Shown here: positions 13,483-13,556 of the stretch, one piece after another
Layout: the number at the start of each line of letters is the position of its first letter
Position numbering within the stretch: position 1 is the stretch's first letter
Source: a virus
Lineage: Duplodnaviria > Caudoviricetes
Strand: one strand, 5' to 3'
Virus record (IMG/VR): IMGVR_UViG_3300005544_000020
Coordinates: 160,001 to 224,000 of that record
Length of the DNA: 64,000 nucleotides
Notes under the pieces: model-generated
The model's database searches: none
What the model was told of the DNA's origin: nothing
What the model saw: the letters and a program-made list of their open reading frames with translations, nothing else
Program-made: the position numbers and the translations under genes

Positions 13483-13556
13483 TGGTGCTCCCGACGGGAT
13501 TCGAACCCGTATGCGGACTTTTAGAGAGTCCTAGCCCGCCTTTGGCCCACGGGAGC
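13483..13556 (-). tRNA. amber suppressor tRNA, anticodon CUA
   Basis: GCUCCCG/CGGGAGC A CCA; D arm GGCC-AAAGGCG-GGCU; anticodon arm GGACU-CU CUA AA-AGUCC; variable GCAU; T arm ACGGG-UUCGAAU-CCCGU. Confidence 0.9.

Follow-up and report, generated by a model that had tools for sequence, protein, structure and literature searches.

A phage tRNA with the anticodon CUA, tRNA(CUA), encoded at 13483..13556 on the minus strand of the DNA analyzed here, is probably a functional elongator that decodes UAG and that, judging from the sequences of the phage and its relatives, has been selected for the readthrough of a single conserved UAG, codon 3 or 5 in a gene encoding a Pth2-like protein. The DNA, hereafter the window, is the 64,000-nucleotide stretch at positions 160001-224000 of the single 236,090-bp contig (57.7% GC) of the virus record IMGVR_UViG_3300005544_000020, which is about 90% complete. 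The in-frame UAG is called the gate below, and the Pth2-like gene the gated gene. Positions are those of the window unless the genome or another record is named; G000 designates the full phage record, G001 and G002 the records of relatives, L-numbers fetched loci and P-numbers proteins.

TAG Is an Ordinary Stop Codon with One Credible Exception

The use of TAG in the genome was analyzed with a codon model trained on long open reading frames (ORFs) and a weighted-interval dynamic-programming gene finder that was run under two codes. Code 11 scored 24,774, against 23,300 when TAG was taken as a sense codon, and it yielded 459 genes with 91% of the sequence coding. TAG is the stop codon of 107 of these genes (23%), the others ending in TGA (250) or TAA (102), and the TAG-ended genes are spaced evenly along the genome. 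There is no excess of in-frame neighbors across TAG, since the next gene lies in frame after TAG in 28 of 74 cases and after TAA in 28 of 76. The gene model of the window comprises 119 genes, 20 of which end in TAG, and 17 of these are followed by a gene in another frame. These data bear out the initial annotation, made from the letters of the window alone, according to which around twenty genes end at TAG with the next gene out of frame and the genome as a whole has not been recoded at amber codons. Taken together, the preference for code 11, the abundance of TAG stops and the lack of an excess of in-frame pairs rule out genome-wide TAG recoding.

A scan for amber targets, in which every in-frame TAG allowed by the TAG-as-sense model was assessed by the distance to the next start and by the coding score of the gap, gave a single credible in-frame TAG in the 236 kb, namely codon 5 of a gene with a Pth2 fold located at 9979-10335 of the window. 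The initial annotation had already pointed to the Pth2-like gene as the one clear target of suppression and had proposed scanning the rest of the genome for other TAG-split genes; the genome-wide scan left this gene as the only one.

The remaining candidates failed. When Pfam was searched with the TAG read through, no domain crossed the TAG at genome positions 8103-9755, 13570-15057, 19611-21182, 38735-39514, 51922-52593, 95626-96930, 121136-122944, 124533-127400 and 137477-140062, and the candidates at 59058-59741 and 229992-232457 had a negative coding score or non-coding leaders. The region G000:C1:124533-127400 (minus strand) is an unusual run of four consecutive ORFs of 285, 202, 50 and 382 codons in the same frame, with nothing but TAG and 0-2 codons between them; since no Pfam domain spans the junctions, they probably represent separate genes. 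The top amber candidate in G001 turned out to be a low-complexity repeat read out of frame. An open frame of about 2,000 codons at G001 81807-87965 consists of collagen-like repeats, and it mimics in-frame TAGs in the wrong frame.

The In-frame UAG Is Conserved and Accompanied by a CUA tRNA

The gated gene (9979..10335, minus strand) has 118 codons including the UAG, with its ATG start at 10333..10335 and a TGA stop at 9979-9981. Its first codons read ATG AAC GAA ACG TAG GTC GCC, which places the UAG, the proposed site of action of tRNA(CUA), at codon 5 (10321..10323). The post-TAG protein of the window itself had no match in Pfam or NCBIfam, and PF01981 was matched weakly by 10 of 18 family members (best E 5e-5). 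A profile of the Pth2-like family likewise found no match among the PDB sequences, so that a fold search was needed. The AlphaFold (AF2) model of the post-TAG protein, built on 18 relatives, reached a predicted local distance difference test (pLDDT) value of 83.8, and the top 15 PDB matches returned by Foldseek were 14 Pth2/Bit1 chains and the Pth2-like protein Atu0240 (2gax, template modeling (TM) score 0.66). The Pth2/Bit1 chains had TM scores of 0.67-0.73, apart from one nuclear magnetic resonance (NMR) model at 0.46, and the match probability was 1.00 for 14 of the 15 and 0.99 for the NMR model; the structures matched were 1wn2, 1q7s, 3erj, 2zv3, 1xty, 1rlk and 2gax. At the level of the predicted fold, it is thus justified to describe the gated product as Pth2-like.

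The conservation of the gate was analyzed in the DNA of relatives, which comprised 4 contigs obtained by exact protein look-up, 13 viral contigs and 47 metagenome contigs and provided, after deduplication, 46 distinct contexts with upstream sequence. The metagenome homologues of the Pth2-like protein are often called as truncated proteins, as expected if an in-frame stop cuts the gene. The gate stop was TAG in 45 of the 46 distinct loci and TGA in the other one, and it was located at codon 3 in 29 loci and at codon 5 in 15. The base that follows the stop was G in 41 of the 46 loci, and it is known that a purine after a stop codon favors suppression. The Pth2-like proteins of the gated loci diverge down to 34% identity, which argues that the gate does not reflect the recent shared ancestry of a defect.

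The gate is also physically linked to a CUA tRNA. ARAGORN detected such a tRNA on the same strand, 0.1-3.2 kb from the gate, in 34 of the 46 fetched flanks, in most cases either 100-200 nt upstream of it, 720-820 nt downstream of it, or as far as 3.2 kb off. Locus L011 has its CUA tRNA about 7 kb from the gate in the full record, as located with a covariance model, and in L061 the CUA tRNA is cut by the contig end; overall, about 36 of the 46 loci have a CUA tRNA near the gate. The arrangement in G001 (235 kb, 97% complete; L169-L180) is of particular relevance to this linkage: 40 tRNAs for all amino acids are grouped there in one array at 8364-29365, and the lone CUA tRNA is found at 128871-128944, 100 kb from the array and 724 nt behind the Pth2-like gene.

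The sole TGA gate, at about L064:1210, reads ATG ATC ATG TTG TGA, and 189 nt upstream of it (L064:1021-1096) there is a tRNA with an aberrant 6-nt anticodon loop, AUUCAA, that contains UCA. This pair may represent a matching opal version of the tRNA and its gate.

tRNA(CUA) Has the Structure of an Ordinary Elongator tRNA and an Invariant Anticodon

The tRNA(CUA) gene encodes 71 nt plus a CCA end (74 nt in total), and the anticodon is at 13522-13524. The initial annotation had described a clean 74-nt cloverleaf with a CUA anticodon that is not of the tRNA-Pyl shape, and had named ARAGORN as a means of checking it. ARAGORN did call a 74-nt tRNA with the anticodon CUA at 13483-13556 on the minus strand, one of only three matches in the whole genome together with two 'tRNA-Ala' calls considered below, and Rfam model RF00005 matched positions 13486-13556 over all 71 model positions with 54.2 bits (E 5e-11; gathering score, 29). 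The molecule has a 7-bp acceptor stem (GCUCCCG/CGGGAGC) followed by A73; U8 and A14; a D arm with a 4-bp stem (GGCC/GGCU) and a 7-nt loop, AAAGGCG, that includes G18G19; an anticodon arm with a 5-bp stem (GGACU/AGUCC) and a 7-nt loop, CU-CUA-AA, with U33 and a purine at position 37; a 4-nt variable loop, GCAU; and the T arm ACGGG-UUCGAAU-CCCGU. By its structure, tRNA(CUA) is therefore an ordinary class I elongator tRNA. The tRNA-Pyl, for its part, is characterized by a 6-bp anticodon stem, a 3-nt variable loop, a short D loop lacking G18G19 and one base between the acceptor and D stems. tRNA(CUA) departs from it in the 5-bp anticodon stem, the 4-nt variable loop, the presence of G18G19, the T loop UUCGAAU and the two bases (UG) between the acceptor and D stems, and PylS (TIGR02367) had no match in the 236-kb record; the label 'tRNA-Pyl' in the ARAGORN output is the mere naming of a CUA anticodon.

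An Rfam run on the whole 64 kb at the gathering threshold did not list tRNA(CUA), which scored 54 bits when 451 bases were searched. The miss is presumably due to the speed filters, and a blank from such filters is thus no evidence of absence.

To this structural evidence the comparison of relatives adds a signature of selection. Thirty distinct CUA tRNAs fit the cloverleaf with 98.4% of the stem cells paired, and 18 of the 21 stem pairs show compensatory changes on both sides; none of 500 shuffles reached the observed values, and slid controls were 39-48% paired. The loop bases CUAA, which include the anticodon, are invariant in all 30 sequences, and the remaining three loop positions are nearly so, whereas the acceptor stem varies within the family and the discriminator N73 is A or G. 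That the anticodon stays fixed while the stems diverge is, at the level of sequence, the signature of a tRNA family under selection for decoding UAG.

The amino acid carried by tRNA(CUA) was approached through its closest relatives. Its exact 3' 21-mer, which covers the T arm and the 3' half of the acceptor stem, is shared by 64 cellular tRNAs, 55 of which are tRNA-Glu with the anticodon UUC or CUC, carried by archaea and by Nitriliruptoria-type Actinomycetota; in the phage database the closest matches are to tRNA-Glu from Klebsiella phages (81% over 47 nt). The acceptor stem and T arm are thus of the Glu type, a 4-nt variable loop is also compatible with Glu, and a single change leads from CUC to CUA. 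In contrast, the D stem (G10-U25, G11-C24, C12-G23, C13-G22) is unlike that of the Glu tRNAs found; a Glu-type D arm has U11-A24 and an augmented D helix, which is an identity feature for the GluRS of E. coli. No clear parent of the CUA tRNA was found among the 40 co-resident tRNAs of G001 (best match, 68-75%), a gene of the GluRS/GlnRS type was not found on the phage genome, and an exact-pattern scan of viral contigs with the string from anticodon to T arm gave no match. With a Glu-like acceptor and T arm, an un-Glu-like D arm and acceptor stems that vary within the family, the earlier statement that the amino acid cannot be read from the sequence stands. According to textbook identity rules, insertion of Glu, Gln or Lys would be plausible in a bacterial host. 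Because the UAG lies inside a short and variable N-terminal tag, the inserted residue is probably unimportant, the passage of the ribosome being what matters.

Aeromicrobium genomes encode 74-nt tRNAs with the anticodon UAA (L074:7354-7427, L105:939-1012 and L136:3404-3477) that share the acceptor stem and the T arm with tRNA(CUA). They are called as Leu tRNAs, yet they have a short variable arm in place of the long Leu arm, and a search of their contexts for a Pth2-like gene found none.

A Two-part Switch Is Proposed for the Pth2-like Gene

The tRNA(CUA) gene begins 9 nt past the stop codon of the preceding ORF, and a generic scan revealed no dedicated promoter or terminator above background. 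We propose that the tRNA would be transcribed as part of the upstream operon. The gated gene has a promoter-like sequence of its own, TTGACA-17 nt-TAGTCT, at 10343..10371 (minus strand). This site, read from the sequence, fell below the threshold of the generic promoter scan, and it ends 7 nt ahead of the ATG, which indicates that the gated message is probably leaderless. A TTGACA...TAGTCT site likewise follows the tRNA in L001 and L004, and in most relatives the promoter of the gated gene directly follows the tRNA; the two parts would then be derived from different transcripts and would have to coincide. A synthetase of the host would charge the Glu-like scaffold of tRNA(CUA), and the charged tRNA would compete with release factor 1 (RF1) at the gate ACG-UAG-G. 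Ribosomes that lose this competition would release a peptide of only 2-4 residues, a failure at codon 3 or 5 costing just a di- or tetrapeptide, and those that win would make the hydrolase. In this way the gated gene would need two components at once for its expression, its own transcript and the charged phage tRNA, as in a translational AND gate whose failure is nearly cost-free. Since an unprotected TAG is the stop of 23% of the genes of the phage itself, suppression would have to be partial, as it is with laboratory suppressors. The action of tRNA(CUA) may be conditional, as the initial annotation had suggested. The gate might serve for timing, for keeping a potentially harmful hydrolase off outside the phage program, or, should the enzyme act on the tRNA that suppresses its stop, for feedback.

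Nevertheless, several observations weigh against this interpretation. About 10 of the 46 loci are without a CUA tRNA, although half or more of these are short contigs (<3.2 kb). In L012/L013, which belong to record G002, the slot upstream of the gate is occupied by a CAU tRNA (L012:4895-4971) with a U1-U72 mismatch and the loop CCCAUAA, and no CUA tRNA was found among the about 30 tRNAs of this 103-kb fragment, which is 31% complete. The two parts are not adjacent in the present genome either, with 3.1 kb between tRNA(CUA) and the gate. Moreover, the nearest backup TAA or TGA lies at a median of 51 codons after TAG stops, the same as after TAA stops (p = 0.80), and without backup stops an efficient suppressor would extend about a quarter of the proteome, so that its efficiency or its timing must be limited. 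Finally, why a Pth2-like enzyme should be gated at all is a matter of conjecture.

A Phage RF2 Gene Carries a UAG in Its Frameshift Window

The initial annotation had also recommended a search for release-factor genes, and this search led to something that it had not foreseen, a phage gene for release factor 2 (RF2) whose frameshift window contains UAG. The prfB gene lies outside the window, on the minus strand at G000:C1:15054-16122 (L141:1420-2488). The class I release-factor ORF as called scored 369.5 bits on prfB, against about 220 on RF1 models. A 23-codon frame upstream of it ends in GAGGAG TCG CTT TAG C, and it keeps the layout of the prfB window, that is, an SD-like GAGGAG, a 3-nt spacer, CUU, a stop codon and C, with UAG (L141 2417-2419) replacing UGA. 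With a +1 shift at CUU-U the score increases to 385.3 bits (about 225 on RF1 models), which exceeds the prfB cut-off (370), and the resulting product can be aligned with prfB over positions 5-353 and, from residue 7, with the RF2 of T. thermophilus, the junction being at the known place. The sequence CTT-TAG-C is also present in three relatives, L154, L167 and L168 (81%, 75% and 65% identity as a set), and CTT-TGA is found in L155 and L156 (66% and 59%). Among the prfB motifs of 8,164 bacterial genomes, the stop is TGA in 98.6% and TAA in the rest, with no TAG (PMC12421855), and the same 2025 survey takes this stop usage as proof that the motif serves the autoregulation of RF2; the UAG-type window contradicts the generalization from bacteria that the motif always holds a stop readable by RF2.

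The phage RF2 also differs in its sequence. The 62 nearest homologues (among P0050-P0113) form a clade with a remodeled stop-codon recognition loop, GVHR[IV][CQ]H[IV]-S-x-F-D[AS]NGKKQTSF versus the usual GVHRLVRI-SPF-DANxRRHTSF, in which the conserved proline is lost and RR and H are replaced by KK and Q; the variable residue is E, A, K, D, R or T, and the present phage has S-R-F. The clade is apparently phage-borne, and from its loop its codon specificity may differ from that of RF2. A single-protein search of viral contigs for relatives of the phage RF2 gave no match.

These results raised the question of whether the UAG dependence of the Pth2-like gene is part of a broader rewiring of termination, in which tRNA(CUA) would belong to a circuit that senses or replaces the RF1 of the host. 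The gate would require suppression and prfB a +1 shift at CUU-UAG-C, and both would be favored by a weak action of RF1 at UAG; the tRNA would also clear the ribosomes waiting at the many UAG stops of the phage, and the variant RF2 would take over termination. A complete phage RF2 with the classic window but a UAG in it, the recurrence of CTT-TAG-C in relatives at 65-81% identity, its absence from all the bacterial motifs surveyed (PMC12421855), the S-x-F and KKQ loop in place of SPF and RRH, and the RF2 reported on TAG-recoded phages (bioRxiv 10.1101/2021.08.26.457843) all fit such a circuit. However, three relatives with the Pth2-like gate, two of which also have the CUA tRNA, lack RF2, and they include the 97%-complete 235-kb genome, so that the tRNA/gate pair is independent of RF2, which is not an obligate partner. 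In addition, if UAG is read as sense in the prfB window, translation runs into a TGA 12 codons on and no RF2 is made, which means that the tRNA works against, not for, the synthesis of RF2. There was also no sign of RF1 inhibition, and proteins extended past their TAG stops would gain a median of 51 codons. We therefore regard this rewiring as an unlikely account of the tRNA.

A wider scheme can be drawn tentatively, and is possible although doubtful, in which the suppressor tRNA, the UAG-requiring Pth2-like hydrolase, the anticodon-less tRNA mimics located behind it and the variant RF2 would be the four parts of one UAG circuit. With it the phage would measure or take over RF1-dependent termination, either through an RF2 that reads UAG, in which case the window would still be autoregulatory, or by having both genes switched on when RF1 is disabled.

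The Gate Is Not Readily Explained as a Tolerated Stop or a Mini-ORF

Another explanation sees in the UAG of the Pth2-like gene an in-frame stop that was the first to be tolerated in an early step to TAG recoding, or in tRNA(CUA) a general tool for weak readthrough. Suppressor tRNAs do occur in standard-code relatives of recoded phages, where they have been read as preceding the code change (bioRxiv 10.1101/2021.08.26.457843), and the present phage carries an RF2 gene, as the TAG-recoded Lak and Agate phages do. That model, however, starts from the depletion of TAG in low-GC phages, whereas here the GC content is 58% and TAG ends 23% of the genes, and in G001 it ends 112 of 308 modeled genes (36%). 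Furthermore, 45 of 46 loci, with proteins that diverge down to 34% identity, have the UAG at the same position and in the same surroundings, which does not resemble a random tolerated mutation, and a second in-frame TAG was found in neither of the two genomes of about 235 kb (this phage and G001). Taken together, these data make an early recoding step rather improbable.

The short upstream frame itself could instead be functional, ATG-x-TAG being a terminating mini-ORF that regulates the Pth2-like gene by termination or peptidyl-tRNA drop-off, with a non-canonical start for the gene and with the tRNA tuning or antagonizing the process. ORFs of 2-4 codons, such as the bar minigenes of lambda, are classic drop-off substrates for peptidyl-tRNA hydrolase, the gated product is itself Pth-like, and the codon before the stop is biased, being ACN (Thr) in 38 of the 46 loci. 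Nonetheless, the gene would then have to start without a canonical codon. No such start precedes the conserved first strand (consensus Y-V-V-V-R-x-D-L) in 43 of the 46 loci, where the first ATG, GTG or TTG falls within or beyond this strand, and in the present phage 41 codons with a positive coding score separate the gate TAG from the next ATG/GTG/TTG, which falls inside the conserved core. In addition, the upstream ATG alone is provided with a Shine-Dalgarno sequence or promoter, the former being located ahead of it in 41 of the 46 loci and replaced by a TAGTCT box in the remainder, including this phage. The mini-ORF has, accordingly, little probability as an alternative to readthrough of the UAG by tRNA(CUA).

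The tRNA-shaped RNAs behind the gated gene bear on the last alternative. They are encoded on the minus strand within 9649..9898, where ARAGORN called 'tRNA-Ala cgc' at 9649-9727 and 9821-9898, and they end in CCA and have an acceptor stem, GGGCAGG, with G3-C70. Their anticodon arm forms a closed hairpin capped by a GCAA (GNRA) tetraloop, and 'tRNA-Ala(CGC)' is therefore a miscall of anticodon-less RNAs. Conserved elements of about 60 nt precede each of them, up to about 9971, and similar 'tRNA-???' calls follow the Pth2-like gene in many relatives (L004, L005, L016, L019-L023, L029-L031), these RNAs belonging to the same conserved module as the gated gene. It is very improbable that the tRNA(CUA) gene likewise has a non-decoding role (an integration-site remnant, a decoy for tRNA-targeting defense or a primer) with CUA being incidental, as the presence of RNAs clearly unable to decode in the same module might suggest, because CUA is invariant in 30 sequences with freely diverged stems, all the features for use by EF-Tu and the ribosome are present, and the tRNA co-occurs with a UAG at a fixed site.

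Comparison with Known Systems

Suppressor tRNAs are well known from phages recoded at TAG or TGA. Phages that use code 15 (TAG to Gln), such as crAss-like, Lak and Agate phages and others, carry suppressor tRNAs (bioRxiv 10.1101/2021.08.26.457843; PMC9523058), and the present phage resembles them in having a CUA tRNA of canonical shape, presumably a standard-code bacterial host, and RF2 on the phage genome. In those phages, in contrast, in-frame TAGs occur in many, mainly late, genes, the coding density under code 11 is low and TAG stops are few, whereas here 91% of the sequence is coding under code 11, 23% of the stops are TAG and one gene needs suppression. The suppressor tRNAs of the standard-code relatives of recoded phages provide a closer parallel, as there is no genome-wide recoding in them either. 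They were attributed to chance acquisition and no target was named (bioRxiv 10.1101/2021.08.26.457843), whereas in the present case a conserved target codon travels with the tRNA.

As in the tRNA-Pyl/PylS system of methanogens and some bacteria, a dedicated CUA tRNA would serve an in-frame UAG in few genes while UAG remains a stop elsewhere; here, however, the UAG lies in a variable N-terminal tag and not at a catalytic residue. The laboratory amber suppressors (supE, supF, supD; psu1 of T4) are also elongators with a changed anticodon that decode UAG in competition with RF1, but they are mutant alleles selected in the laboratory, unlike the natural gene family with its own conserved target described here. 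The +1 frameshift of prfB at CUU UGA C (PMC12421855) likewise employs an early stop codon in the gene of a translation factor as a sensor, although the gate of the Pth2-like gene would work by suppression and not by frameshifting. A full-text search of the literature found no paper in which a phage suppressor tRNA is linked to a gene for a peptidyl-tRNA hydrolase. What distinguishes the present case is its high GC content, the abundance of TAG as a stop and the association of the tRNA with just one target codon, which is deeply conserved.

If tRNA(CUA) is used as we propose, phage suppressor tRNAs, which are now read as tools for whole-genome recoding or as accidents that precede it, would have a third use, the readthrough of one conserved UAG, and this single-target use would explain "orphan" suppressor tRNAs in standard-code phages. 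Together with a leader of 3-5 codons, the tRNA would make up a compact natural switch of gene expression in two parts, which might be of use as a genetic tool. The Pth-like target, the tRNA mimics and the RF2 with a UAG window would point together to a phage manipulation of termination and tRNA recycling, a subject that has received hardly any study.

Other Features of the Locus

A hairpin of 10 bp, GCACCAUCUA / UAGAUGGUGC, is predicted at 13457..13488 (minus strand) by a ViennaRNA fold of positions 13430-13500 (-24.6 kcal/mol). It pairs C72, the last base of the acceptor stem, A73 and the CCA end of tRNA(CUA) with the 3' trailer, and it is possibly a precursor or processing element that could mask the CCA end or guide 3' processing. 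Searches of Pfam and PHROGs with the neighbors of tRNA(CUA) remained mostly without a match, and a single-protein search of viral contigs for relatives of the 249-amino acid downstream neighbor had no match either; a gene for a GNAT acetyltransferase is located near tRNA(CUA), at 11204-11560. In L001-L003, the gene immediately upstream of the CUA tRNA encodes an RNA ligase (PF09414; L001:8732-9817), and in L155 such a gene is near the variant RF2 (5517-6539), which hints that tRNA repair is part of the same functional neighborhood as the CUA tRNA and RF2.

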